Origin: Kiloniellaceae bacterium
GTDB taxonomy: Bacteria > Pseudomonadota > Alphaproteobacteria > Kiloniellales > J153
Assembly: GCA_021776135.1 (NCBI GenBank)
Contig: JAJFGL010000031.1
Span: 4,703 to 68,702, forward strand
Length of the DNA: 64,000 bases
Direction: 5' to 3'
Position 1 is the first letter of the stretch; each line of letters opens with the position of its first letter. Of the stretch, positions 41,478 to 64,000 are shown piece by piece. A program made the position numbers and the translations under genes. The notes under the pieces were generated by a model. It saw only the letters and a list, made by a program, of their open reading frames with translations, was not told the origin of the DNA and did not search any database.

Positions 41478-42866
41478 TTAACGGGCGGCGCTTCGCCGGA
41501 ATTGAATGTCGTTTCGTCCCTCGAGATACCCATGAACCGCCAGGGCCGTTTCCTGGGCCAGGTGCAGGCAGTTCGCGACCGAGGGGCCGGCGAGGTAATT
41601 TCCGGTCAGGAACAGGCCTTCGTGCCGCCTAGCGGTGGTTCGTAGAACCTCGGCCAGGCCTTGGTGGCCGATTTCGTACTGCGGCAGGCCGAGCGGCCAA
41701 TGGCGCACCCGGGCGATGCTGGGTTCGCCTTCGGCGCCAATCAGATCGCGAAACTCCGACCTCGCCAGGCGGATCAATTCAGGCCCCGGAAGGCGGGCCA
41801 TATGAGGCGCCCGGGCGCCCCCTATATAGGCGGATACGGCGACATGCCCCGCGGGCGCGCGGCCCGGGAACATGGTCGAACAGAACTGAGCGCCGATAAG
41901 CTTGCGGTTTTCCGCTTCGGCGGTGAGGAAGCCGAGGCCGTCCAGGGAATGGGCGACCTGGCGGCGGGGATAGCCCAGGAACACCACTGCCATGGGCGGC
42001 GCATGTATGCGCCCTGCCGCCGTGGCGGCTTGCGGATCGAGGCCGGCAAGCAGTTGCGCCGCCACATGGGCCTGGGTGGCGACGATGACGGATTTCGCCT
42101 GCAAACGCCCCTGCGGGCCAAGATCGATCGTGAAGCCGCCATGACAGGGCGATATCCGCCGCACCGTGGCGCCGGTTCGGATCCTGTTCCCCAAGCCTAG
42201 GGCCAGCGCCCTGGGCAGGGCCGCGATACCGTCGCGCCAGGAAAACAGCCGGCTGCCCGGCATTTTCCCGCCTTCGCGCCGGGCGTGCATGGCGCCCAGG
42301 GAAACGGAGCCGTATTTTTCCTCCAGGGCCACCAGCTTGGGAAAGATAGCCGAGACCGACAGCGCCGAGGCGCGGCCGCCGTAAATACCGGCGACCATGG
42401 GATCGATAATGCGTTCCGCGAATTCCTTGCCGAAGCGGCGCGAACAAAAGTCCATCACCGTCTCGTCCTTGCCGCCGCTTCTTTGCGGCAAAAGAAAATC
42501 CGCCAAGATGCGCAGCTTAGCCATGGGCGACAGATAGGACGCCGTTAGCATCCCAAGCGGCCCCGTGGAGATCGCGGAAAGTTTCCCCGCCGATACGAGA
42601 TAGCGGTTGCGAACCCCCACGCCGAGGTCGCAGCGCTGAGCGTCGAGACCGAGTTCGCTCGAGATTTGCCCGGCAGCAGGAATGTGCGCGTTCATGGTGC
42701 TGGGCCCATGTTCCATGAGGAAACCGCCGAGACGCTCGGTGATGGCGCTGCCGCCGGTGTGGGTTTGACGTTCGAGAAGGGTGACCTTGTGTCCACGGCT
42801 GGCGAGGCCGTGGGCCGCGGCCAGGCCGGAAACCCCGCCGCCGATGACGACGGCATCGCGGGTCAT
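41478..42866 (-). CDS. FAD-dependent protoporphyrinogen/coproporphyrinogen oxidase (HemY/CgoX family)
   Basis: Start set at Met 42866 (ATGA overlap with the radical SAM stop). Dinucleotide fold VVIGGGVSGLAAAHGLA...LLERQTHTGG...EHGPST. C-terminal LFLTGNYLAGPSVANC is typical of HemY. Confidence 0.7.
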   Translation of the reverse strand: MTRDAVVIGGGVSGLAAAHGLASRGHKVTLLERQTHTGGSAITERLGGFLMEHGPSTMNAHIPAAGQISSELGLDAQRCDLGVGVRNRYLVSAGKLSAISTGPLGMLTASYLSPMAKLRILADFLLPQRSGGKDETVMDFCSRRFGKEFAERIIDPMVAGIYGGRASALSVSAIFPKLVALEEKYGSVSLGAMHARREGGKMPGSRLFSWRDGIAALPRALALGLGNRIRTGATVRRISPCHGGFTIDLGPQGRLQAKSVIVATQAHVAAQLLAGLDPQAATAAGRIHAPPMAVVFLGYPRRQVAHSLDGLGFLTAEAENRKLIGAQFCSTMFPGRAPAGHVAVSAYIGGARAPHMARLPGPELIRLARSEFRDLIGAEGEPSIARVRHWPLGLPQYEIGHQGLAEVLRTTARRHEGLFLTGNYLAGPSVANCLHLAQETALAVHGYLEGRNDIQFRRSAAR

Positions 42867-44140
42867 TGTTCCGGCGTCCCGATACCGGGCGGCCGCCCGC
42901 CGAAGCGGGCGCGGGCTGTTTTCGCCAAGAGCGCCATCACCTCGGCCGTGACCTCGCACCCCTGTTCAGCCAGAACATGGCCTTCGGCTCTTTGGCGAAC
43001 GAATTGGCGGACGAAAGAGGGTATCCGCGCCAGCCATTCCTCCGCTTCCGGGGTCCAACGCAGACTGCCGGCATCCTTGTTCAGGGGCTCGATAACCGGA
43101 CCGCCTTGCGGCTCGTAGGCGCAGAGGAAATCCTCACCCATGAGCTGGCCGTCGCGGGCCAGGGGCCGGGCCCGGCAGCCACCGCAAATCTTTGAGTACT
43201 CGCAAGACCCGCAGCGTCCCTCCAGGACCGGCTTTCGCAACGCCTGGAACTGCGGCGCATCGCGCCAAATTTCGGCGATGCCCTGCGCGCGGATGGAGCC
43301 CACCTCCTGTTCCATGTAAGGGCAGGCCGTGACTCCGCCCAAGGGCGTGATCCGGCAATAGCGGGTCCCGGCCAGGCAGCCGCCGGCTTCGTAGCCGTGA
43401 GCGGCGGTGATCGGCCAGTCCGGGTCCAATTCCCAGGCCATGCGCTTGAAGTGCGGCGCGCACTTGGCCCGGATCATGATGTCCGTCTCCTGCTTGGCCG
43501 CTAGCGTCAGCTTGCGCATGACCCGGTCGTAGGATTGCGCGGAGATGTTGGTCATCTGTTCGCCGCGGCCGGTGCAAACCAGGAAGAAGACGTTGAGAAC
43601 GAAGGCCCCGGCGTCGCGCGCGAAAGCGATCATATCGTCGAGTTCGTGGGCGTTGTCGTCGGTGACCGAGAAATGAAGCTGAAAGCGTAAATCGTTGCGG
43701 CGGCAGGAATCAATGCCGGCCATGGCCAGTTCCCAGGAACCGGGCAGCCCGCGAAAGGCGTCGTGGGCTGCGGCGTCGAGGGAATCCAGGCTGATCCCCA
43801 CGCCTTGCGCCCCGGCCTCCTTCAAGGCCAGGACCCGCCGGTCGTTGAGGCCCATGCCGTTGGTGCCGATCACCGCCATGAGCCCCAAGCCCGTGGCATG
43901 GGCGACAAGTTCCGCGAGGTCGGCCCGCAACAGCGGCTCGCCGCCGGTAAAGACGACCATGATCTCATCGCTAAGCGCGGCGATGTCGTCCAGCAGCGCC
44001 GTCACTTCCGCCGTGGACAGTTCACCTGAGGCGTCGCTTTCCCGGGTGCCGGCGTCGAGATAGCAGTGCGCGCAGTTCAGGTTGCACCGGCGGGTCAGGT
44101 TCAGGGCGATCAGGAAAGGCGGGGGGAGTGTATCTGCCAT
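42863..44140 (-). CDS. Radical SAM/SPASM-domain enzyme (AhbD/NirJ-like) with C-terminal PCP_red-like domain
   Basis: CNLNCAHCY (CX3CX2C). C-terminal Cys clusters (GGCLAGTRYC, ACPYM, CGSCEYSKICGGCRA). Tail LRWTPEAEEWLARIPSFVRQFVRQRAEGHV resembles the ChlB/BchB C-terminal domain. Start set at MADTLPPPF. Confidence 0.8.
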   Translation of the reverse strand: MADTLPPPFLIALNLTRRCNLNCAHCYLDAGTRESDASGELSTAEVTALLDDIAALSDEIMVVFTGGEPLLRADLAELVAHATGLGLMAVIGTNGMGLNDRRVLALKEAGAQGVGISLDSLDAAAHDAFRGLPGSWELAMAGIDSCRRNDLRFQLHFSVTDDNAHELDDMIAFARDAGAFVLNVFFLVCTGRGEQMTNISAQSYDRVMRKLTLAAKQETDIMIRAKCAPHFKRMAWELDPDWPITAAHGYEAGGCLAGTRYCRITPLGGVTACPYMEQEVGSIRAQGIAEIWRDAPQFQALRKPVLEGRCGSCEYSKICGGCRARPLARDGQLMGEDFLCAYEPQGGPVIEPLNKDAGSLRWTPEAEEWLARIPSFVRQFVRQRAEGHVLAEQGCEVTAEVMALLAKTARARFGGRPPGIGTPEQ

Positions 44141-44153: not shown

Positions 44154-45803
44154 TCATTCCTTGTCCGCTTCGGGGGGCACCGGGCACATGGCCTTGCGTG
44201 CCTCGGCCACGGCTTCTTCCGCCAACTCCAGAGAAATTTCCTTGAGGCCGCGTTCAAGCGCCAAGTCCTCGACGCTCGCCTTCACCGGCTCGCGGACCAT
44301 GGCCGGCACCTTGGCGACCCGGGCCAGGGCCGCCGCCGTCCAGACCGGCCGGTCGTCGGCGTCCAGGTCGAGAAACGGCGTCACATGCTTCGGCAAGACC
44401 TCGCCGCTGTGATCGCGCCGGGCGCGCTTGATGGCGCGCAGCCGGATGTTATCGGCGACCGCCGGGTCGGGAAGCTTGGCGAGCAGCTTCAGGGCCGCTT
44501 TGCTCCAGGTCAGCTGTGCCCCGCCGCCCGGCTTGTTGGCGGCGAAACCCGGCATGGCCTTGCCCATGACCTCGTCCACGAGATCGGAGGTGACGAAGGT
44601 GTGGCCCAGTTTCTGGACGTGGCGCAGGACCATGCGCCGGGCCATGTCGCGGACGAATTCCGGCGCCCGGGAAATCTTCTTCTCGGCCTCGAGGCTCCAG
44701 GCCACGGTTTCCTCGGCCACCACGTCGAGAGGCGGGGTATAGACGCTCTGGGTCAGCCACATATGACAGGGCGCCAGACGCAGCAGGTTTTCCGCGTTGC
44801 CGCCGATGTCCAATTCGCCGTCGGCGTGAACCCCGGTCTTGCCGACCACCAGCAAACTGGCGCCGACTTCTTCCAGGTAGGTCAGGATGGCCTTGTAGGG
44901 CTTGCCGTCCAAAAGCTTGGTCGCGATCTTGACCCCCAGGCCCTCGGCCAGGGTCTCGGCCACCTCCAGGTGCGACTGGTAGATCTTGGCGATGCCGTCG
45001 TCGATGAGCTCCTCGTGCAGGGCTTCCTGTTCCTTGAAGCGGAAGACCTTGCCGGCTTCCTCGCTGAGCACGTCCGCGATCTTGTTGAAGGCGACGTAGT
45101 GGTAATAAGGATCGTAGGCGGCGATCGCATGAACCTCCGCCCCGGTCCGGGCCGCCAGGTCGAGGGCGGTCATGAGGGCGCCGTAGGATAGCGGCGAGCC
45201 GTCGATACCGGCGACGATGGGACCGTCGCCTATCGCCTTCTTGGGGTCGCGGACGACGAAGGTATCGATGGGCGAGCGGCGCACGACGCGCTCCGCGACG
45301 GTGCCGATGAGGCTACCCGGCACCGCGCCCAGGCCCAAGGCCCCCAGGGCCAGCACGTCGTAGTCGCCGCTACGCGCCGCCTCCACCACCTTGGTGTAGT
45401 TCTTACCTTCGGGGCTGAGCCGCTTGAAGGTCACGCCGCCCTCGTCGCAGGCCGCCCTGCCGGCATCGTGGTAAGAATCGGAGATGATGCTGAGGCCGCG
45501 CGTTATCAGGTCGTCGTGAACCTCGCGCTGATGACCCATCTCCTGCTCGTCCAGATACCTCTCCGGCAGTCCGCCTTCCATCATCTTGAAACGGCGGTCG
45601 TGGAGCAGGGCCGCATAGGCGTGAATGCCGGTGATCGTGCCGGCGGCGGACTTGGTCAGGCGGATCGCCTCTTCGAGCGCCTTGTTGGCGTGCTCGGAAG
45701 CATCCAGGGCCACCAGAATACGCGCCAAGGGCACGGGCGCCGTGTCCGCCGGGCGGGAATCGGCCGCCGTCTCGGCGGTTTGCGGGGATAAAGAAGGTGT
45801 CAT
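44154..45803 (-). CDS. Tandem universal-stress-protein domains fused to three PCP_red-like repeats
   Basis: Two USP units (ILVALDASEHANKAL...; IVAGIDGSPLSYGAL...). Three W-x-x-(E/A)A...(I/L/V)P motifs follow (VAWSLEAEKKISRAPEFVRDMARR; LTWSKAALKLLAKLPDP; PVWTAAALARVAKVPAMVRE). Confidence 0.7.
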   Translation of the reverse strand: MTPSLSPQTAETAADSRPADTAPVPLARILVALDASEHANKALEEAIRLTKSAAGTITGIHAYAALLHDRRFKMMEGGLPERYLDEQEMGHQREVHDDLITRGLSIISDSYHDAGRAACDEGGVTFKRLSPEGKNYTKVVEAARSGDYDVLALGALGLGAVPGSLIGTVAERVVRRSPIDTFVVRDPKKAIGDGPIVAGIDGSPLSYGALMTALDLAARTGAEVHAIAAYDPYYHYVAFNKIADVLSEEAGKVFRFKEQEALHEELIDDGIAKIYQSHLEVAETLAEGLGVKIATKLLDGKPYKAILTYLEEVGASLLVVGKTGVHADGELDIGGNAENLLRLAPCHMWLTQSVYTPPLDVVAEETVAWSLEAEKKISRAPEFVRDMARRMVLRHVQKLGHTFVTSDLVDEVMGKAMPGFAANKPGGGAQLTWSKAALKLLAKLPDPAVADNIRLRAIKRARRDHSGEVLPKHVTPFLDLDADDRPVWTAAALARVAKVPAMVREPVKASVEDLALERGLKEISLELAEEAVAEARKAMCPVPPEADKE

Positions 45804-45887: not shown

Positions 45888-46090
45888 GCGCGGTTGCGCC
45901 GGATCGCCCCGATCATGCAAAGCAACAGCCCGGCCGCGATGAGCATGGCGTGAAAGGGGACGATCTCGAGACCGCCGCGCCACGACAGCATGGTGTTGAG
46001 CCACCCCAGGATAATCAGGATAACGCCGAAGATACGAAAGACGGCGCCCCGGCTTCTATCAGGTAACGATTCCTGTGCCTCATCCCTCAT
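45884..46090 (-). CDS. Small two-TM membrane protein (68 aa) coupled to the cytochrome c/EB_dh gene
   Basis: ATGA start/stop overlap with the upstream gene. Two hydrophobic helices (VFRIFGVILIILGWL; AMLIAAGLLLCMIGAI). Confidence 0.5.
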   Translation of the reverse strand: MRDEAQESLPDRSRGAVFRIFGVILIILGWLNTMLSWRGGLEIVPFHAMLIAAGLLLCMIGAIRRNRA

Positions 46091-47622
46091 GGTGCCCGAG
46101 TCCTCGCGCTACGTCCCCACCAAATCAGAATCGCGCCGAGCAAAAGCGTAACGGCGATGGCGGCTATGATGGGCCGGGCACTAGCCGAGGGTTTCAGCAG
46201 CAGCCAGTACCAGGTGGTCATGGCGTGATGCGATCCGGCTTCGCCGTTGGAGCCGTCCCAGGCGAAAAAGGCGATGGGAATGAAACGCCCTTCCTCGAAC
46301 TGCAAGTCCTGGTCCGCGGCCCCGGTTATCAGTGGCCGGGTCATGACCACGCGCCAGGTGCCGGCCTTGTAGCTGCTCTTGGCCGTGAGGCCGCCGGCAT
46401 CGCGCATTTGTTGCTCGGCTATTCCCATGGCGTCGATCATGGCGACGCTTTCCGCTTCCTCCGTGGTGCCGCCGGACCAGCGCCAGAGATTGACCGGCTT
46501 GGCCGCGTCGCCCATGAGGAAATAGGGTTTCTCCATGCCGGCGGGGAGCGTCACCGGGAACTGCACGGCGACGGCGTCTTCGGTCAGGTCTTCGTCGGCG
46601 ATACTCAGGGCCTTAGGGTCGCCGGGGATGCTCTTCGTCCGGTCGTCCCATTCCAGATGCAGGCCGATTTTATCGCCGTTATAAAGGGCGCGGACGCTGA
46701 GCGTGTCGTTGGCGGCGGTGAAGAACCGCGTTTCGCCGACGATCTGCGGAACCATGAAAAAGGTTGAGGGCGGCGCCGCATCCCAGGCGGGATCTTCGGG
46801 CGAGGAGGGAATCTCCCCCTCCAGGCGCGCCGCCTGAATGACCGTGTTCGCGGGCCGCACGACCTTTTCCGTCTTGGCCAGGGAGGTCACGTAGTTGGCG
46901 ACGTGCCAGCGTTCCTCGATGCTCAACTTCTTCTTGCTCTTGGGGTCGGCGAAGGAGGGCATCTGTGTGGTCGGGATGCCCGCGGTGATTCGGTTGAAGA
47001 CGTCCTTGGGGTCGTTGCTGGCGCGGAAGGTCCAGGGCTTGGTTAGGTTCCGGGGCCAGGTTCGGTCGCCGTTGTCGTTTTTCAGCTTCTTGATGGCGTC
47101 GCCCTTGCCCTCGGCGCCATGGCATTCCGAACAGCGGTCGTCGGCGTGAAAGAGCGTCTTGCCGGCGGCGATGCTTTCCGCCGAGGTCGCGACCTGGGCA
47201 CCGTAATCCACCTGAGTTTCAGGTTCGCCCTCCAATTCCGCGAAGGTTTTGATATAGGCGATGACGTCCCACATGTCCTGTTCGTTCAGCAGGCCGCTCC
47301 AGCCCGGCATGGCGGTGCCGGGCATGCCGTCGCGGACCATGCGGAGCAGGTCGCCGTCGTTGGGCAAGTCCTCGTCGAAGGGCGTGGACTTGAACTTGTA
47401 GAGGCCGAAGGTGAAATCGCGCGGCGGCGGGTTCAGGCGCTCGGCGGCCGGGCCGAGGCCGTCGCCGTCCTCGCCGTGGCACTGCAGGCAGCGCTTCGCG
47501 TAGATGGCCTCGCCATTTTCCTCGTCGCCCGGTGCGGCCATGGCCGGGCCCAGATAAAGCGCCAGAAATCCGGCGGCAAAGACCGGCGGGAGGTATTTTT
47601 TCAGCCCGCCGCCCGCCATCAT
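46087..47622 (-). CDS. Diheme cytochrome c fused to EB_dh (DMSO-reductase type II heme-b subunit-like) domain with C-terminal TM anchor (module 1)
   Basis: Signal peptide. CLQCH and CSECH. C-terminal half has the EB_dh pattern (VRALYNGDKIGLHLEWDD..., AVQFPV..., FFAWDGSNGE). Terminal helix IIAAIAVTLLLGAILIWW. Confidence 0.8.
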   Translation of the reverse strand: MMAGGGLKKYLPPVFAAGFLALYLGPAMAAPGDEENGEAIYAKRCLQCHGEDGDGLGPAAERLNPPPRDFTFGLYKFKSTPFDEDLPNDGDLLRMVRDGMPGTAMPGWSGLLNEQDMWDVIAYIKTFAELEGEPETQVDYGAQVATSAESIAAGKTLFHADDRCSECHGAEGKGDAIKKLKNDNGDRTWPRNLTKPWTFRASNDPKDVFNRITAGIPTTQMPSFADPKSKKKLSIEERWHVANYVTSLAKTEKVVRPANTVIQAARLEGEIPSSPEDPAWDAAPPSTFFMVPQIVGETRFFTAANDTLSVRALYNGDKIGLHLEWDDRTKSIPGDPKALSIADEDLTEDAVAVQFPVTLPAGMEKPYFLMGDAAKPVNLWRWSGGTTEEAESVAMIDAMGIAEQQMRDAGGLTAKSSYKAGTWRVVMTRPLITGAADQDLQFEEGRFIPIAFFAWDGSNGEAGSHHAMTTWYWLLLKPSASARPIIAAIAVTLLLGAILIWWGRSARTRAP

Positions 47623-48386
47623 TCGTTCCCCCAGGTTCGCGGCGAATGGCCCGTGTAATCATAGAGGAACAGGATCGTTTTCCAGATCTCGTCTTCCTTA
47701 AGGAAATTCTGCCAGACCGGCATGGAGGAAATCCAAGGCGCCGCCTCCTTCGGCAAGCCTGGGCCGCCGGTGGCAATGCGCCAGAACAAATAGGATTCCT
47801 GAAGCTGGGCGATGGTGCCCACGTCCTGGAAATTGAGCGGCGTCGGGTTCAGGCCGGCCGCATAGGGGCCGTTGCCGTCGAGCTTGTCGCCGTGGCAGTA
47901 CTGGCAGTTCTGGATATAGACGGCGGCGCCTTCCTCAACCAATTCGCGGAATTGCTCCGGGTCTTCCTTCTCCAGCTTCCTGAAGGGGTTTTCCAGCTTC
48001 AGGAGATTGACCCGCTTACCGTAAATCTTGGCCGTGGTCGGCGGCGCCGGGTGGATGGTGCGCAACTCCAACGGCGCTTCGAAGCTGGGCTGCATCTGCA
48101 CGTAGGTGCCGGCCCCCGCCGCCAGCGGGACGATAACGAAAACGATGTTGCGCCACACGCGCTTGCTCGGATCCTCGACCAGGGCCTTGATGGGGGCGAC
48201 CAACTCGCGCGTCCCTTCCTCGTCGTAGGTAAAGACCATGAACACCCCGGCGGTGACGAAAAACATGTACATGACCAGCAGGCTGGACGGGATCACCGCC
48301 TCGAGGATCACGTCGAAGACGACGATAAAACCGAAATAGACCCCGGCCAGGACCAGCACGGCCTGCAGCAACTTGGGAATTCTCAT
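47619..48386 (-). CDS. Membrane-anchored monoheme cytochrome c (module 1)
   Basis: Hydrophobic N-terminal helices, one CQYCH motif. C-terminal WRIATGGPGLPKEAAPWISSMPVW is shared with its module-2 paralog. Confidence 0.8.
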   Translation of the reverse strand: MRIPKLLQAVLVLAGVYFGFIVVFDVILEAVIPSSLLVMYMFFVTAGVFMVFTYDEEGTRELVAPIKALVEDPSKRVWRNIVFVIVPLAAGAGTYVQMQPSFEAPLELRTIHPAPPTTAKIYGKRVNLLKLENPFRKLEKEDPEQFRELVEEGAAVYIQNCQYCHGDKLDGNGPYAAGLNPTPLNFQDVGTIAQLQESYLFWRIATGGPGLPKEAAPWISSMPVWQNFLKEDEIWKTILFLYDYTGHSPRTWGNE

Positions 48387-51150: not shown

Positions 51151-51174
51151 GCCCGTTCTTCTCCCCCGCGTCCC

Positions 51175-51285: not shown

Positions 51286-51313
51286 ATTTCAACACCTGGG
51301 AAACCCATCCAAC

Positions 51314-58344: not shown

Positions 58345-59130
58345 CTACTCGCTATCGGAGAAGGTAAAGTCGATCTCCTGCGCGCCCTTGGCGGCGACCG
58401 TGATCTTGGTTTTCTTGACCCCGTAGCGCGGATGCCAGGCCTTCAGCGTGTACTTGCCCGGCGGCAGGTTATCGATGGCATAGGAGCCGTCGTCGCCGAC
58501 CACCACGGCATAGGGATGAACCGGCGCCATGATGAAGCCGAACATGAAGTTGTGGGCCTCGCAGTTGATGCCGATGTAGGACGAGCGGCGCGGCTTGATC
58601 TTGTCGGTGATGTCGCCGGGATCCGGCTGCCCGAAGTTGAAGAGCGTCTTCTTGACCACGCGGCCCTTCTCGACCCCGATCAGCTCACGGGCGTTGATGT
58701 TGTGCAGCACCCCGGCGTCGCTGTTGCGGATGACGAAGGGGCCGGGCCTGACGACCTGGGCCCAGGGCCGGAAACGGCAACCCTTCTGATTGACCAGATA
58801 GGTGCCCATCTCGGGCTTCGGCCAGGCTTTGCCTTCCTCAATCTTGGAAATGAAAACGAAAACGCCGCGCAAGGCGCCGTCCTTGACGTCAACCCAGGCG
58901 ACTTCGCGCTCGCCCTCGCCGCAAACATCGACGTTTTTGGTAATCAGGATTTTCTCGATTGCGTCGGCGGGAACCGCGCCCTCGAAACTAATCTTGCCGG
59001 TGACCGTGCCGCCATCGGCGACGTCCATTTCTTTGTACTTGTCCTTTTTGGCCGCCTCTACCGGCGCCGCTAGCGCCAGGGAGGCAAAAGCAGCCAGCAC
59101 AAGGCTGACGATAGGTAATTTCGATGTCAT
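58345..59130 (-). CDS. Periplasmic cupredoxin-like protein (putative type 1 Cu site) with beta-sandwich (CarboxypepD_reg-like) C-terminal domain
   Basis: Signal peptide. Candidate ligands H in GVLHNI and C-x2-H-x2-M in INCEAHNFM (amicyanin-like spacing). C-terminal DDGSYAIDNLPPGKYTLKAWHP. Confidence 0.55.
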   Translation of the reverse strand: MTSKLPIVSLVLAAFASLALAAPVEAAKKDKYKEMDVADGGTVTGKISFEGAVPADAIEKILITKNVDVCGEGEREVAWVDVKDGALRGVFVFISKIEEGKAWPKPEMGTYLVNQKGCRFRPWAQVVRPGPFVIRNSDAGVLHNINARELIGVEKGRVVKKTLFNFGQPDPGDITDKIKPRRSSYIGINCEAHNFMFGFIMAPVHPYAVVVGDDGSYAIDNLPPGKYTLKAWHPRYGVKKTKITVAAKGAQEIDFTFSDSE

Positions 59131-59145: not shown

Positions 59146-61419
59146 TTATCCGTGCCGCATGCGGCCGCTAGCCTCGGCGGCTGAAGCGTTCAGTTCTTCC
59201 AAGGCCTCGATGGCGACGGACCAGATCCGCTTGCGCGCCGGGTCGCTAAGCACATCGATAAAGAGCGCGCTGGCGCGCGCCGCATCCAGGCCGCGCATGA
59301 GACGGGCGGCCTGGCGGCCGTGATAACCCTCGAAGGAAACGGCGAAATCGGCCAGCAGTTCGAGCGTCCCTTCGCCACCGCCGCGCGCGACCGCTTCCGC
59401 GGCGTGCAGGCGCACGGCAGGATCGGGATCGTCGAGCAGCGCCTCGGCCAGCGAAACGGCGTGGCCCGAGATCGAGAGCGCACGCACCGCCGCCGCGCGC
59501 ACGAAGCTGTCTTCATCGCCGGTATGTTCAACCAACAGCGCGCTCGCTGCTTCGCTGCCGGCGGCGGCCAAGGCGCGTATCAGGAATAGTTTCATATCCC
59601 GGTCAGCCGTCGCCATGGCGGTCAAGAGCGTTTCGGCGACGTCGGGGGGGAGCGGACTTAGATGCGCGCCGATGCGGGCCAAGGAATCGGCCGCCGTCAG
59701 GCGCAGCTCGGCATCTTCGCCGTCAAGGACGGCGGCCAAGGCCCTCGCCACCTCGGCTTGCGCGATATCGCCCAGCACCCGGGCCGCGAAGCGGCGGATA
59801 TCCTCATGCAAGACCACCTTGGGCGCCAAGGATATGCGCTTCTTGCCCTTGATGCGCTTGGCCATGGCCAAGCGCTCCATGTCGGTCGGGGTCAATTCGA
59901 TGCCCTGTGCGGGCAAGTCCAGAACCTTCCCGGCCTCCGGTTCGTCGGCAAGAATCGCGTTCAGGGTGGAGGTTGGGAAGGCCTCAGCCTCAGCCTCAGC
60001 CTCAGCTTCCGCCTCGGCCTCAGTCTCGGCCTCAGTCTCGGCTTCCGCTTCGGGCGCCGCCTCGATTTCGCGCGGATTTTCCGTGGCGGCGTTTTGCGCG
60101 CCGGGTTCGCCATCGGTTTCGGGCGCGTAGCCGCCCCCCAGGGCCGACAGCAAGGCCGCCCCGGCATTGTTGGGCCAGGCGGCATCGGCCTTGGCCAGCC
60201 GCGCCAGCGCCGACATGGTTTCCAGGCGAATGGCGCGCTCGGAATCGTCGATGGCATCCACCAGCGCCGACACCGCCCCCGCGCCGCCGGCCATCGCCAA
60301 GCCTTGGAGCGCCCCGAGGCGGACATCGACCGGCCGCCCGGTATCGCCGAGCAAGGGGATCAAGGATTCCACCGCCGCTTTCGGGGCGGCGGCGGCGAGA
60401 GCGCGGGCGGCGGCCGCCGCGATCTCGGCGGAGGAATCCGCGAGCTTCGCGCGCAAGGCCGCGGTCAGGGTCTCGTTAGCGGGAAAATCACGCACGTCCG
60501 CGAGGACCTTCAATGCCGCCACCTGCACGCAAGCCGCGGCGTCCGCGATCATGGCTGGAAGACGCTCGACATGGCGCCCGCCGCAAAGCCGCACGGCCTC
60601 GGCGCGAAGCGCGTCATCGGGATCCTCGAACAAGGCCGCCAAACGACCGTCCGCGGGAGCCCGCGCCGCCAGCGTCCGCAGGGCCGCGCCGCGCACCTCG
60701 GCGGCGGGGTCGGCGAAAGCCCGCGCCAGCGGGACCGTTGCTTCCTCGTCATCCGTGGATGCCAGGGCCGCCGCCGCGCGCCGGCGCAAACGCGCCGAGT
60801 CTTCGTCAAGGAAAGCATTCAGCGCCTCAATACCCGGCCTGCCCATGCGCGCCAGCGCCTTGAAGGCCGTCTCGGTCATATCCTGGGCGTTTTCTTCGCC
60901 CATGGCGGCGACGATATCGGGCACCGCCTCGCCCACGTTAAGGTCCGCCAGGGCGTCGACCGCTTTGATCTGAATATCGACCCAGTCGTCCCAGCCGCTG
61001 GAATAGAACTCTTCTTCGTCCCAGGCGATCTCTTCGTCGCGGCCCTTGAGCATGCGCCGGAGCCAGGGCACGACCCGCCGGTCCTGTAATTTCGCCAGGG
61101 CCTCAATGGCCGCCAGCTTGACCCCTGTACAAGGATCGCCGAGCAGATTCTCAAGGAGCTGTTTGCCGGCCTGCGGATCGGCAAGCGCCGAAAGCGCCTC
61201 GGCGGCGTCGGTGCGGACATCTTCGTCCTCGTCCAGCAGGGCCGCGATCAAGGGCTCGACGGCCGCCGGCGCGCCGATACGCCCCGAAGCCTGCGCCGCC
61301 AAACAGCGGTGCACGTCGATCCCATCGCTGAGAACGCCGCCCAGTACCCGGCACACCTCGTCCGATACCGGAGGGCGGAACGCTGTCCGGTCCTGCGGCT
61401 CAGATCCTTTGGACGTCAT
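59146..61419 (-). CDS. Cytoplasmic HEAT-repeat (PBS-lyase-type) protein, 757 aa, with central acidic (EA/ET)n linker
   Basis: Many repeats of the form D-x-D/E-x-x-V-R-x-x-A-A-x-A-L (e.g. DEDVRTDAAEALSAL, DPAVRLHAAEAVARGG). No signal peptide. Confidence 0.75.
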   Translation of the reverse strand: MTSKGSEPQDRTAFRPPVSDEVCRVLGGVLSDGIDVHRCLAAQASGRIGAPAAVEPLIAALLDEDEDVRTDAAEALSALADPQAGKQLLENLLGDPCTGVKLAAIEALAKLQDRRVVPWLRRMLKGRDEEIAWDEEEFYSSGWDDWVDIQIKAVDALADLNVGEAVPDIVAAMGEENAQDMTETAFKALARMGRPGIEALNAFLDEDSARLRRRAAAALASTDDEEATVPLARAFADPAAEVRGAALRTLAARAPADGRLAALFEDPDDALRAEAVRLCGGRHVERLPAMIADAAACVQVAALKVLADVRDFPANETLTAALRAKLADSSAEIAAAAARALAAAAPKAAVESLIPLLGDTGRPVDVRLGALQGLAMAGGAGAVSALVDAIDDSERAIRLETMSALARLAKADAAWPNNAGAALLSALGGGYAPETDGEPGAQNAATENPREIEAAPEAEAETEAETEAEAEAEAEAEAEAFPTSTLNAILADEPEAGKVLDLPAQGIELTPTDMERLAMAKRIKGKKRISLAPKVVLHEDIRRFAARVLGDIAQAEVARALAAVLDGEDAELRLTAADSLARIGAHLSPLPPDVAETLLTAMATADRDMKLFLIRALAAAGSEAASALLVEHTGDEDSFVRAAAVRALSISGHAVSLAEALLDDPDPAVRLHAAEAVARGGGEGTLELLADFAVSFEGYHGRQAARLMRGLDAARASALFIDVLSDPARKRIWSVAIEALEELNASAAEASGRMRHG
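59981..60052. repeat. Imperfect hexanucleotide tandem repeat (gcctca/gcctcg/gcttcc units) encoding EAEAETEAETEAEAEAEAEAEA
   Basis: Read directly. About 12 units, in frame within the HEAT-repeat gene. Confidence 0.8.
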
Positions 61420-61461: not shown

Positions 61462-61499
61462 GCGGGCCCGGCTGACCGCTAGGGTTCAGCCGGGCCCGC
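61462..61499 (-). other. Intercistronic stem-loop (14-bp perfect stem GCGGGCCCGGCTGA/TCAGCCGGGCCCGC, 10-nt loop)
   Basis: Read directly. Starts 9 nt after the molybdoenzyme stop codon. Followed on the minus strand by AAGTGCGTTTGAGTT (only weakly U-rich). Possible partial terminator or mRNA-stability element. Confidence 0.5.
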
Positions 61500-61507: not shown

Positions 61508-64000
61508 CTACGTGATATCCCTCGGTGCGAAGGACATGGAGCGGAAAGATTTCTTGTAGGGCGACTCGCCGATCTTCTTCACCTCGGCGACACCCATCTT
61601 GTAGTTATAGTTGCCGCTGATCCAATCGACGATCCGGCCTTCCAGCGCATTCGCGGGCTGCGAGGTGTGCAGGAAGTCCATGTAGAGGATGCCCTTCTTG
61701 ATGTGGCGCGTGACCATGGCGACGCCGGTGACGGCGGCCCGGGTCAGCTCCACGTTTCCGGCCTTCATCTGGCCGCTGAAGGAATAATCGCTACCCTCCA
61801 CGCCGAGAATCGTTTCTTTCAGGCTTGGCACCCGGTCGGAAAAGACCATCAGCATGTCGCCGCTCTCGATGCCGCGCGCCTTGGCGTCTTCGGGATGGAT
61901 TTCGACGTAGTTGTCGGGCCAGCGCTGAACGATGTAAGGACGGCGCCGGTCGTCGAAACCCGACTGCCAACGCTCGTTTGTGCGCCCCGAGGTGCACCAG
62001 AGCTCGTCGCCCTTGGGTTTCATCCATTCCCAATAGTCCGAGAACAGCGACCAGGGCGATTTCTGGATGTTGCAGCGCCCGGTCTGACTATTGAAATGGG
62101 TCAGTTTCTTGTTGAACATATTAGCGCCCTGCGGCCCATCGGGATCGAGTTTCCGGGTCGTGTCGTGCAAGCGCTTGGTTCCCATCAGGGACCCGTCTTC
62201 GCGCATGAACACCGGGCCTTGGATGCCGTTGGTGCCGAACTCGCCAAGTTTTTGATGCAGGGTCTTGCCCTCGCGGTGGGCGGCGACCTTGATCATGTTG
62301 AAGTCCTTGCGGCTGCCGCGTGAGAAGCGGGCCGATTCCTCGGCGACATCGTTGGAATTCTTCCAATCGAAACCGTCGAAGCCCATGCGCTTGCCCAATT
62401 CGGCGATGATCCACCAATCGGGCTTGGCCTCGCCGGGCGGGTCGTAGAAGCGGTTGTATAGCCGTAGGCGCCTTTCGCCGTTGGCCCGCATGAAGGTGTC
62501 TTCGCCCCAGGTGGCGGCCGGGAAAACAATGTCGGCGTAGCGGTTGCCGATGGGATCGACCAAATAGATGTCCTGGTTGATGACCACCATGCCGCCGGAG
62601 TCGGCGCGCCGCTTCAGGGTATCGATGATGTCCTGCTTGTCGTAGGCCCGCACCTGATGGGGGTTGGCCACGGTCAATTCCTCGAACCGCTTGGCCAGTT
62701 GCTGCGATCCGCACATGGATTGGATCCAAGTGGTGCCGATGACATGGGCGAAGCGGGTATGCCCCGACATGGTCCAGGTATCCGTGTCGAGCGCCCGGCG
62801 CCTGCGCCCCGGCAGTTTCATGGGCGACTTGTTACGCGGATACTTGCCGCCGCGCTGTCCGCCGCGCTGATGGCCGCCGGCCCTGCCGATAACCTGACCG
62901 GGCCTGCCGCCGGCGCCGACGATAATGCCCAAGGCGCTGATCGCCTGGGTATTGCCGGTGTTGTTGGACCAGTAGAAACCCTTTTCGATCATGAGCGAGG
63001 TCTTGGGATGCTTGCCATTCCTCGGCTTGGCCATCATTTCCGCCGCCGTGTAGATTTTCTTGATGTCGATACCGGCGACCTTGGCGGCGTGCTCGGGCTT
63101 GAACTCATCCTGGGCCAGGAGCCATTTTTTCCAATCGTCGAAGCCATCGGTCTGGAACTTGCCCCAGGTCGTGCGCCATTGCCACGGCGTGTTCCGGGTG
63201 CCCTGGCCGAAGCCGGAGTTGGAGCCCCACTTGTTATTGACCCAGTTCTCGATCCACTCGGCATCCTGCCAGTTATTTTCGACGATGATCCGGGCGATGG
63301 CGTTGACCACCAAAAGGTCGGTGCCGAGGTTAACGTCGAGCCACAGCCCGCCGTTGTTTTCGGCATAGGCCACGCCAGCGGTGCGGCGCGGGGTCATCAT
63401 GATGCACTTCTGGCCGTTCTGGATGCCCTTCATGATCCACTGGGTCCAGAGAATGGTCTTGGTCTCGTAAGGATCCGTGCCGCAGATCATCAGGGTCTCG
63501 GCATTCATCCAATCCTCGTAGGCCGGGCCGAAGTTATCGAACCCGGCGTCGCGGAAGCCGGGCGTCGAGGAAACGTCGGAGGGCGTGTCGTGGAAGGTGA
63601 AGTTGGCCGTGTTGATGTGGCGCAGCGCATACTTGGTGATGGCGTAGGTGTTCTCGATGAACTGATAGGAGTAAGTCTTGACGCCGTAGGCATTGGCCCC
63701 GTGCTTGGTGCGCACGTAGTTGCCGACCTCGGCCGCCACATCGAGGGCGAAGTCCCAGGGCACCGGCTGCAGGATGCCGTAAATCCGCATCAGCGGCGCG
63801 CTCAGCCGGTCGCGGGTCGGGGTTTGCGGATTGTAGCATTTCTGCGCGATACAGCCGCCGCGCAGGCTCGAATCGCCGTCGGTGTTGACGAACTCGGTAT
63901 CCTTGTCGGGAACAATCACGACATGGTGCGGCTCGCCCTCGTGCAGCACGACATTGTGCTGGTTGGGCGCCACCCAGGGGCCCAGGACCTCGACCGGGAA
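61508..64000 (-). CDS. Arsenite-oxidase-family (AioA-like) molybdopterin oxidoreductase catalytic subunit; N-terminus (3Fe-4S region) beyond the window edge
   Basis: Reading frame stays open to position 64000. Blocks align with my recollection of AioA: VVIVPDKD...SSLRGG; FHDTPS...ICGTDPYETKT; GGHQRGG; FPAATWGE...ANGERRLRLY..FYDPPGEAKPDWWIIAE; FDWK; C-terminal YKMGVAEVKKIGESPYKKSFRSMSF. Confidence 0.85.
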   Translation of the reverse strand, partial: FPVEVLGPWVAPNQHNVVLHEGEPHHVVIVPDKDTEFVNTDGDSSLRGGCIAQKCYNPQTPTRDRLSAPLMRIYGILQPVPWDFALDVAAEVGNYVRTKHGANAYGVKTYSYQFIENTYAITKYALRHINTANFTFHDTPSDVSSTPGFRDAGFDNFGPAYEDWMNAETLMICGTDPYETKTILWTQWIMKGIQNGQKCIMMTPRRTAGVAYAENNGGLWLDVNLGTDLLVVNAIARIIVENNWQDAEWIENWVNNKWGSNSGFGQGTRNTPWQWRTTWGKFQTDGFDDWKKWLLAQDEFKPEHAAKVAGIDIKKIYTAAEMMAKPRNGKHPKTSLMIEKGFYWSNNTGNTQAISALGIIVGAGGRPGQVIGRAGGHQRGGQRGGKYPRNKSPMKLPGRRRRALDTDTWTMSGHTRFAHVIGTTWIQSMCGSQQLAKRFEELTVANPHQVRAYDKQDIIDTLKRRADSGGMVVINQDIYLVDPIGNRYADIVFPAATWGEDTFMRANGERRLRLYNRFYDPPGEAKPDWWIIAELGKRMGFDGFDWKNSNDVAEESARFSRGSRKDFNMIKVAAHREGKTLHQKLGEFGTNGIQGPVFMREDGSLMGTKRLHDTTRKLDPDGPQGANMFNKKLTHFNSQTGRCNIQKSPWSLFSDYWEWMKPKGDELWCTSGRTNERWQSGFDDRRRPYIVQRWPDNYVEIHPEDAKARGIESGDMLMVFSDRVPSLKETILGVEGSDYSFSGQMKAGNVELTRAAVTGVAMVTRHIKKGILYMDFLHTSQPANALEGRIVDWISGNYNYKMGVAEVKKIGESPYKKSFRSMSFAPRDIT

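Follow-up and report, generated by a model that had tools for sequence, protein, structure and literature searches.

In the published model of the periplasmic iodate reductase IdrAB, reduced cytochrome c (or a cupredoxin) passes electrons to the Rieske cluster of IdrB; IdrA then takes them through its 3Fe-4S cluster to the Mo centre, where IO3- is reduced to HIO, and the two di-haem peroxidases dispose of a peroxide-type by-product. IdrA of Roseovarius azorensis was identified via an iodate-reductase activity band (PMC11445184), and iodate reduction was raised in E. coli expressing idrABP1P2 of an OMZ alphaproteobacterium or of SAR324 (PMC13455634). The OR-N2 group is a predicted cytochrome-c-dependent branch of the cytochrome bd superfamily, whose operons are described as encoding an EbdC homologue alongside several cytochromes c. 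OR-N enzymes are regarded in the literature as putative cytochrome-c-oxidising O2 reductases, none of which has been characterised, and O2 reduction by them is a hypothesis. No published link between iodate reductase and bd-like complexes was found in the literature, and the linkage of idr with two OR-N2-type bd-like complexes described here, seen in the gene neighbourhoods of many low-oxygen ocean bacteria, looks new.

The window analysed is a stretch of 64,000 nucleotides from a Kiloniellaceae bacterium. ORF listing and Pfam/NCBIfam scans showed that all genes between 41478 and the window edge lie on the minus strand in one unbroken run (Table 1), which upheld the gene inventory of a first-pass annotation and the reality of the run, with 19 genes counted where that annotation had given at least 18. 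The Mo subunit, a HEAT_2 protein and a 261-aa secreted protein precede module 2; soluble di-haem and mono-haem cytochromes c and two tiny TM peptides lead to module 1, and a 68-aa two-TM protein, a Usp+PCP_red protein, a Radical_SAM+SPASM+PCP_red protein and a HemY-like flavoprotein complete the array. Both modules share the order CydA-like subunit, di-haem c, mono-haem c and di-haem c fused to EB_dh. A recount agreed with the 13 CXXCH motifs in eight proteins reported before, and, again in agreement, no canonical cydB, aioXSR or ars genes are present. As claimed, ATGA overlaps occur at 47619-47622, 46087-46090 and 42863-42866 and a 1-nt overlap (TAATG) at 49218, but the overlap at 54207 is likewise of 1 nt (TGATG) and not ATGA. 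Below 41478 lie unrelated housekeeping genes, mostly on the opposite strand (EamA, LysR, ion channel, carbonic anhydrase, NhaA), and the cluster therefore ends at 41478.

Table 1. Features of the array, in order of transcription (positions in the window)
Feature	Positions	Strand	Evidence
idrA, catalytic Mo/3Fe-4S subunit of iodate reductase (clade assignment by sequence)	61508..64000	-	Pfam Rieske_3 + Molybdopterin + Molydop_binding
GC-rich stem-loop, 14-bp	61462..61499	-	9 nt past idrA stop codon
Cytoplasmic HEAT-repeat protein, 757 aa, acidic EA-rich linker	59146..61419	-	HEAT_2 E 3.6e-52, 8 stretches
Secreted cupredoxin-like protein, 261 aa, C-terminal CarboxypepD_reg beta-sandwich	58345..59130	-	H...C-x2-H-x2-M motif
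bd2, OR-N2-type CydA-like membrane subunit, 716 aa, module 2	56177..58327	-	Cyt_bd_oxida_I; ~15 hydrophobic segments
Membrane-anchored di-haem cytochrome c, module 2	55186..56172	-	CXXCH 57, 201; N-terminal TM; Cytochrom_C; TIGR02603
Mono-haem cytochrome c, N-terminal TM helices, module 2	54207..55172	-	CXXCH 227; 3 hydrophobic segments; Cytochrome_CBB3
Di-haem c fused to EbdC-like haem-b domain, C-terminal TM anchor, module 2	52552..54207	-	EB_dh 2.2e-20, two Cytochrom_C stretches
Soluble di-haem cytochrome c	51854..52516	-	CXXCH 34, 144; signal peptide; Cytochrom_C and FixO-like
Soluble mono-haem cytochrome c	51471..51839	-	CXXCH 35; Cytochrome_CBB3 5.2e-11
36-aa single-TM peptide, motif FFWWF	51175..51285	-	conserved before bd1-type genes
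38-aa single-TM peptide	51034..51150	-	conserved in L085, L084, L070, L020, L030, L028
bd1, OR-N2-type CydA-like membrane subunit, 597 aa, module 1	49218..51011	-	Cyt_bd_oxida_I 7.9e-17
Membrane-anchored di-haem cytochrome c, module 1	48397..49218	-	CXXCH 64, 200; Cytochrom_C
Mono-haem cytochrome c, N-terminal TM helices, module 1	47619..48386	-	CXXCH 161; Cytochrome_CBB3
Di-haem c fused to EbdC-like haem-b domain, C-terminal TM anchor, module 1	46087..47622	-	EB_dh 7.2e-26, two Cytochrom_C stretches
Two-TM protein, 68 aa	45884..46090	-	always next after module-1 EB_dh gene
Tandem Usp domains then PCP_red (BchB C-terminal-like) repeats	44154..45803	-	Usp 2.5e-34, 2 stretches; PCP_red 1.9e-21, 2 stretches
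AhbD/NirJ2-like radical SAM/SPASM enzyme, C-terminal PCP_red	42863..44140	-	Radical_SAM, SPASM, PCP_red
HemY/CgoX-type protoporphyrinogen or coproporphyrinogen oxidase homologue	41478..42866	-	Amino_oxidase 1.8e-56

The Mo subunit carries the 3Fe-4S motif CDYCIVACGY. Its reading frame is open up to base 64000, so that the N-terminus is cut by the window edge and about 60 N-terminal residues lie beyond it; the full-length product (P0001) has 890 aa. Homologues at 66-92% identity were found in at least 599 species. Species that Reyes-Umana et al. give as idr carriers are among the loci at 66-77% identity, namely Ruegeria halocynthiae, Pelagimonas varians, Labrenzia alba and Vibrio splendidus. 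Two CCP_MauG genes and a Tat-Rieske gene directly precede the Mo gene (idrP-idrP-idrB-idrA) in all related loci with at least 3.2 kb of upstream sequence (72/72), and contigs with a Mo subunit 89-91% identical hold the whole array idrP-idrP-idrB-idrA-HEAT-cupr-bd2 module-c-c-bd1 module. AioA structures matched the Mo subunit with only E 2e-75. By its sequence, the Mo subunit is a member of the published clade of IdrA iodate reductases (PMC8692401). The earlier guess of an Aio-family enzyme other than arsenite oxidase thus holds, whereas the idea of an unknown substrate does not, as IdrA-clade membership points to iodate (PMC8692401; PMC13455634). The idea of an unknown Aio-type enzyme was rejected because the Mo subunit falls in the IdrA clade and idrP-idrP-idrB precede it in all relatives with enough upstream sequence. 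The window reaches the predicted iodate reductase operon (idrP-idrP-idrB-idrA; unit A) at its 3′ end only, with idrA; in this contig, idrB and both peroxidase genes fall beyond the window edge, and unit A is therefore read from relatives.

Pfam and NCBIfam searches confirmed both bd-like modules and their c-haem and EB_dh partners; the EB_dh proteins matched TIGR03477 (DMSO_red_II_gam) at 4.3e-24 in module 2 and 1.2e-32 in module 1. The module-2 EB_dh gene probably starts at the ATG at 54207, although its longest ORF reaches 54303. The modules are 43% identical in the CydA-like subunits, 35% in the EB_dh subunits, 52% in the mono-haem c and 32% in the di-haem c, and are, by sequence comparison, true paralogues. 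bd1 aligns with the CydA structures 9r2g and 5doq across the N-terminal helices, and its His72 pairs with a conserved histidine, residue 21 of 5doq_A, which we take to be the equivalent of E. coli His19. The signature residues H72, Y152, E159, H182, H238, M399, N403, S533 and W539 are conserved in bd1, and all 32 sequences compared, bd2 among them, have without exception the residues of the published OR-N2 row (H, Y, E, H, H, M/N, S, W). Both proteins thus carry the full OR-N2 residue signature in an OR-N2 operon context, their operons holding the same partners as those described. With this signature, the modules resemble the bd-like modules of Nitrospira and Manganitrophus, as the first-pass annotation had proposed. 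Unlike canonical bd, in which E99 and E445 are present, OR-N2 proteins have no equivalents of these residues, and the chemistry of the di-haem site may therefore differ.

A lack of co-conservation between the cytochrome/bd-like genes and the Mo enzyme had been set as a refuting test; the genes proved to be co-conserved in a large subset of loci, in favour of the first-pass annotation. A bd-like module was present in the flank of 26/82 idrA loci, and 34 of the 47 idr loci with full flanks had none within 10 kb. With the cupredoxin-like gene as anchor, HEAT or IdrA was found upstream in 32 of the 38 metagenome contigs with at least 3.5 kb upstream of that gene; among the remaining six, several have idr downstream instead. 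In eight contigs, idrPPBA (55-57% identical) lies between cupr and bd2. The linkage takes at least four gene orders and involves two IdrA lineages. In Arenicellales-type contigs, the bd-like unit lies beside a Nap-like cluster and no idr gene is visible; together with the 34/47 loci, they indicate that the linkage is frequent but not obligatory.

The Pfam scan of the cupredoxin-like protein detected only the C-terminal CarboxypepD_reg and no Copper-bind domain; an invariant H...C-x2-H-x2-M motif is the only support for a copper site in the 'cupredoxin' of the first-pass annotation. H143, C190, H193 and M196 are invariant in 13 homologues (32-79% identity), hhalign against a cupredoxin alignment gave a probability of 40% and E 2.9e-4 with the ligands aligned, and the AF2 model had a pLDDT of 40.6. 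A 133-aa cytochrome c takes the place of this gene in L087, and a Copper-bind gene lies within the idr operon of L082. These two observations and the invariant type-1 Cu ligands suggest that the protein is a putative type-1 copper electron carrier.

The tetrapyrrole-related nature of the last three genes was supported by AhbD/NirJ2-like and HemY matches. The radical SAM protein matched TIGR04545 (haem b synthase) and TIGR04055 (NirJ2) over the full models, both at about 308 bits, below the cut-off of 500; its start is probably the ATG at 44140, although the longest ORF reaches 44257. The HemY-like protein scored 260 bits against TIGR00562 (proto_IX_ox; cut-off 97.85), and its gene probably starts at the ATG at 42866, in an ATGA overlap with the preceding gene. 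The Usp-PCP_red protein is putatively tetrapyrrole-handling or regulatory. Of the three PCP_red repeats claimed for it, two are above the Pfam threshold; the third is degenerate and was seen by eye only. The three genes co-occur in L013-type loci, L086, L087 and Arenicellales-type loci, and the trio travels with the bd-like unit; in Pseudopelagicola, a ferrochelatase occupies its place.

The single-operon picture is doubtful because of the hairpin directly past the idrA stop codon (-36.7 kcal/mol, z -5.15), which none of 200 shuffles equalled. Most related loci have a hairpin of differing sequence at the same site, some followed by T-runs. This element is probably a transcript end, an attenuator or an mRNA-stabilising element, and its strength suggests more than one transcript, with separate or attenuated transcription. 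The HEAT-repeat gene follows idrA in 64/72 related loci, and does so also where bd-like genes are absent; it is an accessory of the Idr clade of alphaproteobacteria.

Gene content, IdrA-clade membership, OR-N2 signature and conserved linkage are observed here; which way electrons flow, the common carrier pool, what the bd-like complexes reduce and what the haem trio does are inferred. The first-pass annotation had the Mo enzyme oxidise its substrate and send electrons on to the bd-like terminals. This direction is probably backwards because IdrAB takes electrons from cytochrome c in the published models, and it is more likely that IdrAB and the bd-like complexes are parallel electron sinks. 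We lean slightly towards reading the whole stretch as a composite low-oxygen respiratory island, in which two recognisable units are genetically linked and share a carrier pool. Unit A would comprise the idrP-idrP-idrB-idrA iodate reductase and the clade-specific cytoplasmic HEAT-repeat gene. Unit B would comprise two OR-N2-type complexes, the secreted type-1-copper-like protein, the soluble di-haem and mono-haem c and the haem-synthesis-like trio, each complex consisting of a CydA-like subunit of about 14 helices without the quinol loop, the membrane-anchored di-haem and mono-haem c and the EbdC-like fusion, with small TM peptides beside module 1. The most likely arrangement is a common periplasmic pool of soluble c-haem and Cu carriers that supplies two types of terminal reductase side by side: IdrAB, which would use iodate, and the bd-like complexes, whose acceptor would be either O2 at a very low level or an oxidant arising from iodate reduction, such as O2, H2O2 or HOI. 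The haem trio would serve specifically to supply or modify haem at low oxygen.

The 36-aa and 38-aa TM peptides are candidate small subunits of the bd1-type complex. The 36-aa peptide is conserved upstream of bd1-type genes in L085, L084, L027, L013, L080 and L031, and genes of 33-40 aa are called at its position in related contigs. The 51-aa ORFs of the mechanical ORF list at these sites are in the wrong frame and were discarded. The 68-aa two-TM protein is 53% identical in L084 and 41% in L085, and genes of 68-102 aa are called at its position in related contigs.

The ORF list, the translations and the Pfam and NCBIfam scans showed that the minus-strand gene series described in the first-pass annotation is unbroken from 41478 to the window edge, and that the genes below 41478 are unrelated to it. 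Most junctions are overlapping or a few bases long, as had been described, except that the overlap at 54207 reads TGATG and not ATGA; the gap between the gene for the molybdenum (Mo) subunit, here called idrA, and the following HEAT-repeat gene (HEAT) is 88 bp. Since the idrA frame runs open as far as base 64000, the window lacks about 60 residues of the protein, which at full length (P0001) has 890 aa. Thirteen CXXCH motifs are spread over eight proteins. The two four-gene sets, module 1 and module 2, which contain the bd-like proteins bd1 and bd2, are paralogous, with identities of 43% (CydA-like), 32% (di-haem c), 52% (mono-haem c) and 35% (EB_dh) between their products. Two 51-aa ORFs that overlap the tiny transmembrane (TM) peptides were rejected as candidates for these peptides, being in the wrong frame, free of TM segments and unconserved. 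The tRNA and Rfam scans of the window gave no matches and hence say nothing about a possible integration site or riboswitch. The array is real, and its conservation extends far outside this genome. For the comparisons below it is divided into unit A (idrP-idrP-idrB-idrA and HEAT, of which the window holds the truncated idrA and HEAT) and unit B (the two modules, the cupredoxin-like gene cupr, the c cytochromes, the small TM peptides and a haem trio encoding Usp-PCP_red, an AhbD-like radical SAM-PCP_red protein, rSAM, and a HemY-like flavoprotein).

Features of the gene array (window genes in transcription order), features of related loci (L numbers), and conserved residues of bd1
Feature	Position	Strand	Remarks
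Mo subunit (IdrA)		-	First in transcription order; ORFs and Pfam
Hairpin after idrA	61462-61499	-	Perfect 14-bp GC stem, 9 nt past the idrA stop
757-aa HEAT_2 protein	59146-61419	-	ORFs and Pfam
261-aa secreted protein (cupr)		-	ORFs and Pfam
Module 2: CydA-like, di-haem c, mono-haem c, di-haem c fused to EB_dh domain		-	ORFs and Pfam
Soluble di-haem c, soluble mono-haem c		-	After module 2
Tiny single-TM peptides, 36 aa and 38 aa	51175-51285; 51034-51150	-	Conserved in distant loci
Module 1: same four-gene set as module 2		-	After the tiny peptides
68-aa two-TM protein, Usp-PCP_red, radical SAM/SPASM/PCP_red, HemY-like flavoprotein		-	After module 1
51-aa ORFs	51278-51433; 51038-51193		Rejected as TM peptides
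Carboxyltransferase and OAD_beta genes	30078-33615	+	About 8-11 kb below the cluster
L009, PAS/Trans_reg_C/BTAD regulator	5447-6598		Upstream of idrP
L013, FGE-sulfatase-domain protein	15926-16663		Between cupr and Usp-PCP_red
L015, bd2-type gene	Starting near 15837		Lys at the His19 position
L082, Copper-bind gene	8875-9348		Between second peroxidase gene and idrB
L083, Crp-family regulator; moaA, moaB, moeA	6083-6865 and 2092-4933		
L084, ferrochelatase, then IS240-family transposase	15241-16293		
L085, Arenicellales-type array	15372-21863		
L087, 133-aa cytochrome c	1788-2189		In the place of cupr
L087, SCO1/SenC copper-chaperone gene	9245-9886		Just before tiny peptide and bd1
bd1 His19 equivalent	H72		Conserved in 31/32 sequences
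bd1 Tyr at E99 position; Glu at E107 position	Y152; E159		Invariant in 32 sequences
bd1 H126 equivalent; His186 equivalent	H182; H238		Invariant in 32 sequences
bd1 M393 region	M399, N403		Invariant in 32 sequences
bd1 Ser at E445 position; Trp	S533; W539		Invariant in 32 sequences

The Pfam scan of the Mo subunit showed an N-terminal Rieske_3 (3Fe-4S) domain followed by Molybdopterin and Molydop_binding, and the 3Fe-4S motif CDYCIVACGY was present in P0001 and in every relative checked. The family is tightly conserved, the best 120 clusters in the protein collection being 76-100% identical to the Mo subunit, and relatives are encoded by at least 599 GTDB species. Carriers include Ruegeria, Roseibium/Labrenzia, Roseovarius, Pelagimonas, Dinoroseobacter, Vibrio splendidus, Photobacterium, Sedimenticola, Ca. 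Thiodiazotropha and SAR324, as well as many MAGs from oxygen minimum zones (OMZ), for example from Saanich Inlet. In public databases these proteins are named 'arsenate reductase (azurin) large subunit' or 'arsenite oxidase large subunit'. A genuine arsenite oxidase, with the cytochromes and bd-like complexes forming an arsenite-to-oxygen chain, would fit these names, the match to the NCBIfam model TIGR02693 (arsenite_ox_L; 389 bits against a cut-off of 359) and the fact that the nearest solved structures are those of AioA. However, the model is passed marginally, by just 30 bits, which explains the arsenite and arsenate names, and over 770 residues the AioA structures matched no better than 2e-75. 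In the alignment with 4aay, the window protein has HDTPSDVSS in place of the AioA active-site stretch HNRPAYNSE, and the replacement HD(T/H)P(S/A)xVxS is kept across the clade. No aioXSR or ars genes were found in the window, as had already been noted, nor in the relatives examined.

The synteny counted in related loci, which covers the genes that in this genome would lie beyond base 64000, showed that two CCP_MauG di-haem peroxidase genes and a Tat-signal Rieske gene precede the Mo gene in 72/72 loci with enough upstream DNA, and metagenome contigs whose IdrA is 89-91% identical to the window protein carry the full array idrP-idrP-idrB-idrA-HEAT-cupr-module 2-c-c-module 1. Reyes-Umana et al. 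use the Rieske gene and the two di-haem peroxidase genes as the criterion separating idr (iodate reductase) from aio. The homologues from Ruegeria halocynthiae, Pelagimonas varians, Labrenzia (Roseibium) alba and Vibrio splendidus, four species listed as idr carriers in Table S3 of Reyes-Umana et al., are 66-77% identical to the window protein. Members of the clade reduce iodate: the IdrA of Roseovarius azorensis was identified from an activity-stained band (PMC11445184), and the idrABP1P2 genes of an OMZ alphaproteobacterial MAG and of a SAR324 MAG raised iodate reduction in Escherichia coli (PMC13455634). Taken together, synteny, identity levels and the overlap with the published species list indicate that the Mo subunit is in all likelihood IdrA, and the arsenite oxidase reading is largely refuted; a canonical arsenite oxidase was rejected on the low structural similarity, the changed active-site stretch, the peroxidases and the missing aioXSR and ars genes. 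Iodate reduction by the window protein itself is predicted by analogy with these clade members, and the complete unit A is likewise predicted from the relatives, since idrB and the peroxidase genes fall outside the window. Marine metagenome surveys that count aioA may be counting idrA.

According to Murali, Gennis and Hemp, the cytochrome bd superfamily comprises quinol oxidases (qOR) and the OR-C and OR-N groups, which are without a quinol site; OR-N2 proteins have 14 helices, and their operons typically contain multiple cytochromes c and an EbdC homologue. Both bd-like proteins matched PF01654 (6.8e-11 for bd2 and 7.9e-17 for bd1), and alignment with the CydA structure showed the His19 equivalent and a short loop after the His186 equivalent. 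An alignment of 32 bd1- and bd2-type sequences reproduced the published OR-N2 residue row at equal spacing. A crude hydropathy count gave 10 hydrophobic segments for bd1 and 15 for bd2. In each module the three partner genes (di-haem c, mono-haem c, and di-haem c fused to EB_dh) are as described for OR-N2 operons. No CydB-like gene was found in Pfam scans of the cluster's products, in agreement with the absence of cydB noted earlier. These data suggest that the bd-like proteins are very probably OR-N2, a classification from alignment and gene context, and the modules are thus an already predicted kind of bd-like complex. The match in both signature and operon context makes the comparison with Nitrospira and Manganitrophus drawn in the first-pass annotation an apt one. 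In the literature, OR-N enzymes are regarded as putative cytochrome-c-oxidising, probably high-affinity O2 reductases. The only Lys at the His19 position among the 32 sequences occurs in a bd2-type gene of L015 and may be a sequencing error or mark a degenerate copy.

The remaining products of unit B are predicted electron carriers and haem-related proteins. The cupr protein has 261 aa and a signal peptide; its residues H143, C190, H193 and M196 (H...C-x2-H-x2-M) are invariant in 13 homologues of 32-79% identity and align with known cupredoxin copper ligands (hhalign probability 40%, E 2.9e-4). Pfam showed no Copper-bind domain in it, a profile search against the PDB matched only a C-terminal beta-sandwich and no cupredoxin fold, and an AF2 model from a 20-sequence alignment (pLDDT 40.6) was too poor for a fold search. 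In L087, a MAG contig, a 133-aa cytochrome c occupies the place of cupr, and L082, a TARA contig with an 87% identical IdrA and no bd-like module, has a Copper-bind gene beside idrB; both observations fit a soluble electron carrier role of the putative cupredoxin. L087 also carries a SCO1/SenC gene inserted just before the tiny peptide and bd1, a hint of a possible copper requirement in the bd1-type complex or its partners.

The rSAM protein gave full-length matches of about 308 bits to the AhbD haem b synthase (TIGR04545) and NirJ2 (TIGR04055) models, below the equivalog cut-off of 500 for both; it is a relative and not an equivalog, and has an extra PCP_red domain. The HemY-like flavoprotein matched TIGR00562 over model positions 2-468 of 470 (260 bits against a cut-off of 97.85). 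In L084, a ferrochelatase gene followed by an IS240-family transposase gene stands where the Usp, rSAM and HemY genes sit in other loci. The trio and this swap suggest a local branch of haem synthesis or haem modification, in which HemY/CgoX, ferrochelatase and an AhbD-like route could lead to haem b from coproporphyrinogen. The HEAT gene follows idrA in 64/72 loci; its product has no signal peptide and resembles bilin-lyase-type HEAT proteins at the repeat level only, and a role in IdrA maturation is a guess. Between its two HEAT-repeat blocks, at residues ~445-480, lies a low-complexity acidic (E-A/E-T)n linker. Within the same loci, identity falls much faster for HEAT homologues (26-64%) than for IdrA (55-92%).

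The linkage of idr to unit B was assessed by a simple tblastn synteny survey of idrA loci and cupr-anchored metagenome contigs. The result showed a bd-like module in the available flank of 26/82 idrA loci and within full 10-kb flanks in 13/47; the bd-like genes are co-conserved with idrA in a large share of loci, a result in favour of the first-pass annotation, though the two are separable. Conversely, idr (HEAT or IdrA) lies upstream of cupr in 32 of the 38 metagenome loci with at least 3.5 kb of upstream sequence; of the remaining six, several have it downstream. The genes are joined in at least four orders. The window's order is shared by P0159, P0211 and, within the extent of its locus, Pseudopelagicola sp. 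nBUS_20. In a second order, module 1 lies upstream of idrP, and cupr-Usp-rSAM-HemY downstream of HEAT (L013, L020, L027, L028, L031 and L075); L080 (Ca. Thiodiazotropha) has the same upstream module 1 and no downstream genes detected. In a third, HEAT is relocated behind HemY. In the fourth, found in eight contigs (L117, L118, L139, L147, L149, L155, L157 and L162), another IdrA lineage (55-57% identical, motif HHDHPS) lies between cupr and bd2 together with its peroxidase and Rieske genes, an independent route by which idr is linked to the bd-like genes.

Exceptions occur on both sides. Roseibium, Ruegeria and one TARA contig carry idr and HEAT only, and Arenicellales-type contigs (L085, L140, L142, L146, L151 and L158) have no visible idr, the order being Usp-rSAM-HemY-cupr-module 2-...-module 1; downstream of their double bd-like unit lies a Nap-like cluster (Nitr_red_assoc, NapC, di-haem c, NapA-like and NapGH-like genes). 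Units that are separable yet joined repeatedly suggest selection for co-inheritance, and the two units are probably functionally coupled. L013, of the single-module locus type, has a gene for an FGE-sulfatase-domain protein (formylglycine-generating enzyme family) between cupr and Usp-PCP_red.

The reading of the whole series as one 22.5-kb operon is downgraded here and is not established, given the strong hairpin directly after idrA (-36.7 kcal/mol, z -5.15). Strong hairpins follow idrA in most related loci (L002-L047 and others), where the position is kept and the sequence differs between lineages, some with T-runs; the one in the window has no T-run. These features suggest that the hairpin is a transcript end or an attenuator between idrA and HEAT, and idrPPBA probably has its own or an attenuated transcript. 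A consensus scan of 44-64 kb found no promoter-like sites, and the consensus terminator-like hits in the same interval were all at coordinates inside genes and uninformative.

In published models, reduced cytochrome c passes electrons to IdrB and IdrA, iodate is reduced to HIO, and the peroxidases remove H2O2 or a similar oxidant; the fate of HIO is disputed between dismutation to O2 and abiotic disproportionation. For the combined array we propose, with moderate confidence in the picture as a whole, that a local carrier pool would consist of the copper protein and the two soluble cytochromes (di-haem and mono-haem), with IdrAB and the two OR-N2 complexes as its parallel sinks; the bd-like complexes would reduce O2 present at very low levels or an oxidant that iodate reduction produces. 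The exchange of the copper protein for a cytochrome c in L087 favours a carrier pool, and the retention of the His19 and E107 equivalents favours a reductive, proton-consuming site. The proposal that the bd-like complexes are dedicated reductases of O2, H2O2 or HOI released during iodate reduction is a doubtful possibility. The main rival to parallel sinks has the electrons flow the other way, the bd-like modules acting as quinol:cytochrome c (or cupredoxin) oxidoreductases that stand in for bc1 or work beside it and feed IdrB. It stays in play because the five predicted helices beyond canonical CydA, which have no assigned function, could hold a quinol site; in addition, unit B is tightly linked to a periplasmic reductase needing electrons at the level of cytochrome c (the 32/38 cupr-anchored contigs), stands beside another such reductase cluster, the Nap-like one, in Arenicellales, and has a long haem wire (five c-haems and a haem b per module) that would suit electron export, and the window contains no bc1 genes. 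However, the OR-N family is defined by the absence of the quinol-binding loop, the retained proton-channel Glu and di-haem-site His fit proton-consuming reduction, the Nap-like cluster of Arenicellales itself encodes the quinol dehydrogenases NapC and NapGH, and many idr carriers are without unit B, so that we consider electron input through the modules unlikely.

It is also quite unlikely that units A and B are independent and merely co-located, both being used at low O2 and inherited or regulated jointly, with nothing passed between them beyond the general cytochrome c pool. The hairpin does split idrA from the downstream genes, most idr loci lack unit B, Arenicellales-type contigs have unit B without visible idr, and OMZ or mesopelagic metagenomes are the main source of both gene sets. 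Against this, a linkage re-created in at least four gene orders, one with a different IdrA lineage inside unit B and another with module 1 upstream of idrP, and found upstream of cupr in most of the 38 contigs and downstream in several of the others, would be difficult to account for unless co-inheritance or co-expression were selected for. The normal role of Aio-family enzymes is that of oxidases, and outside the present loci OR-N bd-like genes are known from nitrite and manganese oxidisers, whose periplasmic oxidising enzyme is presumed to supply them with electrons; several c-type subunits of the array also weakly match the high-potential cytochrome 579 model. An oxidative chain, with iodide or some other high-potential donor oxidised by the Idr-type enzyme and the electrons passed through high-potential c-haem and copper carriers to bd-like O2 reductases, would agree with these points. 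Yet the I-/IO3- couple lies at about +0.7 V, so electrons from it must climb to ordinary cytochrome c with almost no energy left to O2; the conserved peroxidases fit the reductive models, iodate reduction has been demonstrated in clade members, and the cytochrome 579 matches are far below the cut-off. Such a chain is therefore scarcely credible in general, and that the enzyme of this subclade, by analogy with nitrite oxidisers, would head an iodide-oxidising, iodate-forming respiratory chain ending in two bd-like O2 reductases is highly improbable.

The closest known system is the IdrABP1P2 'iodate reduction island' of Pseudomonas sp. SCT, Denitromonas sp. IR-12, Azoarcus sp. DN11 and Roseovarius azorensis, which shares with the present loci the Aio-like Mo/3Fe-4S large subunit, the Tat-Rieske protein and two di-haem peroxidases (in all relatives), the marine/OMZ distribution and the listed IdrA-clade species among the homologues. 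It differs in that the present loci have HEAT after idrA and, in a large subset, a linked 16-gene bd-like/carrier/haem unit, and the window IdrA belongs to the OMZ alphaproteobacterial branch, whereas the IdrABP1P2 model strains belong to the Beta/Gamma branch. AioAB has the same domain architecture, 3Fe-4S motif and Rieske partner, and AioA is the source of the public annotation; apart from the differences on which the arsenite reading was rejected, its physiological direction is opposite. The modules resemble the OR-N2 complexes of Nitrospira, Nitrospina and Ca. Manganitrophus in the signature residues, the several cytochromes c with an EbdC homologue, and the predicted ~14 helices and lack of a quinol loop. 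Unlike known OR-N2, however, they occur in marine Alpha- and Gammaproteobacteria of heterotrophic type, as a tandem pair of paralogous modules, and have an iodate reductase, a cupredoxin-like protein, small TM peptides and haem-synthesis-like genes linked to them. Canonical CydABX shares the N-terminal four-helix haem-binding core, the His19 and His186 equivalents and adjoining small single-TM peptides; in the present modules there is no CydB and, by prediction, no Q-loop, E99 is replaced by Tyr and E445 by Ser, five extra helices are predicted, and c-haem and haem-b subunits are the partners. The nitrite oxidoreductase (NXR) clusters of anammox bacteria and Nitrospira combine a Mo enzyme, a bd-like subunit, c cytochromes and a blue copper protein, and are alike in joining a periplasmic Mo enzyme to a bd-like protein, c-haems, EbdC-type haem b and a copper protein. 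Their Mo enzyme is a type-II DMSO-reductase (NxrABC) acting on nitrite/nitrate, whereas that of the window is of the Aio/Idr type with a Rieske partner, and the EbdC-like domain is part of the Mo enzyme in NXR clusters but of the bd-like module in the window.

The centrepiece of the array is thus an enzyme that is already known but bears a misleading name in public databases, and the membrane modules belong to a known predicted family. As far as the literature searched shows, what is new is the recurrent coupling of idr and bd-like modules with a copper carrier, peptides, HEAT and haem genes, together with the occurrence of the modules in a strain-named record, Pseudopelagicola sp. nBUS_20. 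Within the literature searched, no paper contained both 'iodate' and 'bd-like'; the 2026 study of OMZ expression makes no mention of cytochromes and oxidases (PMC13455634), and the founding idr paper (Reyes-Umana et al.) describes the genes around idrABP1P2 as poorly conserved. Reading the gene as an iodate reductase in at least 599 species changes inferences on arsenic and iodine cycling drawn from ocean metagenomes. Current models of iodate respiration have bc1 supply the electrons and regard the neighbouring genes as not conserved; the HEAT gene, which is conserved, and the recurrent bd-like/carrier/haem linkage point to a dedicated membrane partner in OMZ bacteria, and the linkage is relevant to the dispute over the formation of O2 as against peroxide in the course of iodate reduction. 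In Nitrospira and Nitrospina, OR-N bd-like 'oxidases' are presumed to act as the terminal oxidases, and because these hosts are hard to grow and manipulate, no such enzyme has been characterised; proteobacterial carriers, including Pseudopelagicola sp. nBUS_20, would make OR-N function directly testable. The array gives access to two questions: by which electron path and intermediates iodate respiration proceeds, and what OR-N bd-like 'oxidases' do. Were the oxidative iodide chain true, it would be a long-sought biological route of marine iodate formation, copying the logic of nitrite oxidisers.

The Pseudopelagicola sp. nBUS_20 record (L084, CP179202.1) is a 4.1-Mb contig and may represent a cultured carrier of both modules; the locus begins inside the HEAT gene, with idrA outside it. 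Regulators and cofactor genes vary between idr loci: L009, from an OMZ Rhodospirillaceae MAG, has a PAS/Trans_reg_C/BTAD regulator, and L083 (Roseibium album) a Crp-family regulator with moaA, moaB and moeA. The carboxyltransferase gene and the OAD_beta gene (beta subunit of a Na+-transporting decarboxylase) below the cluster in the window are unrelated to it; a carboxyltransferase gene also lies upstream of idr in L009.
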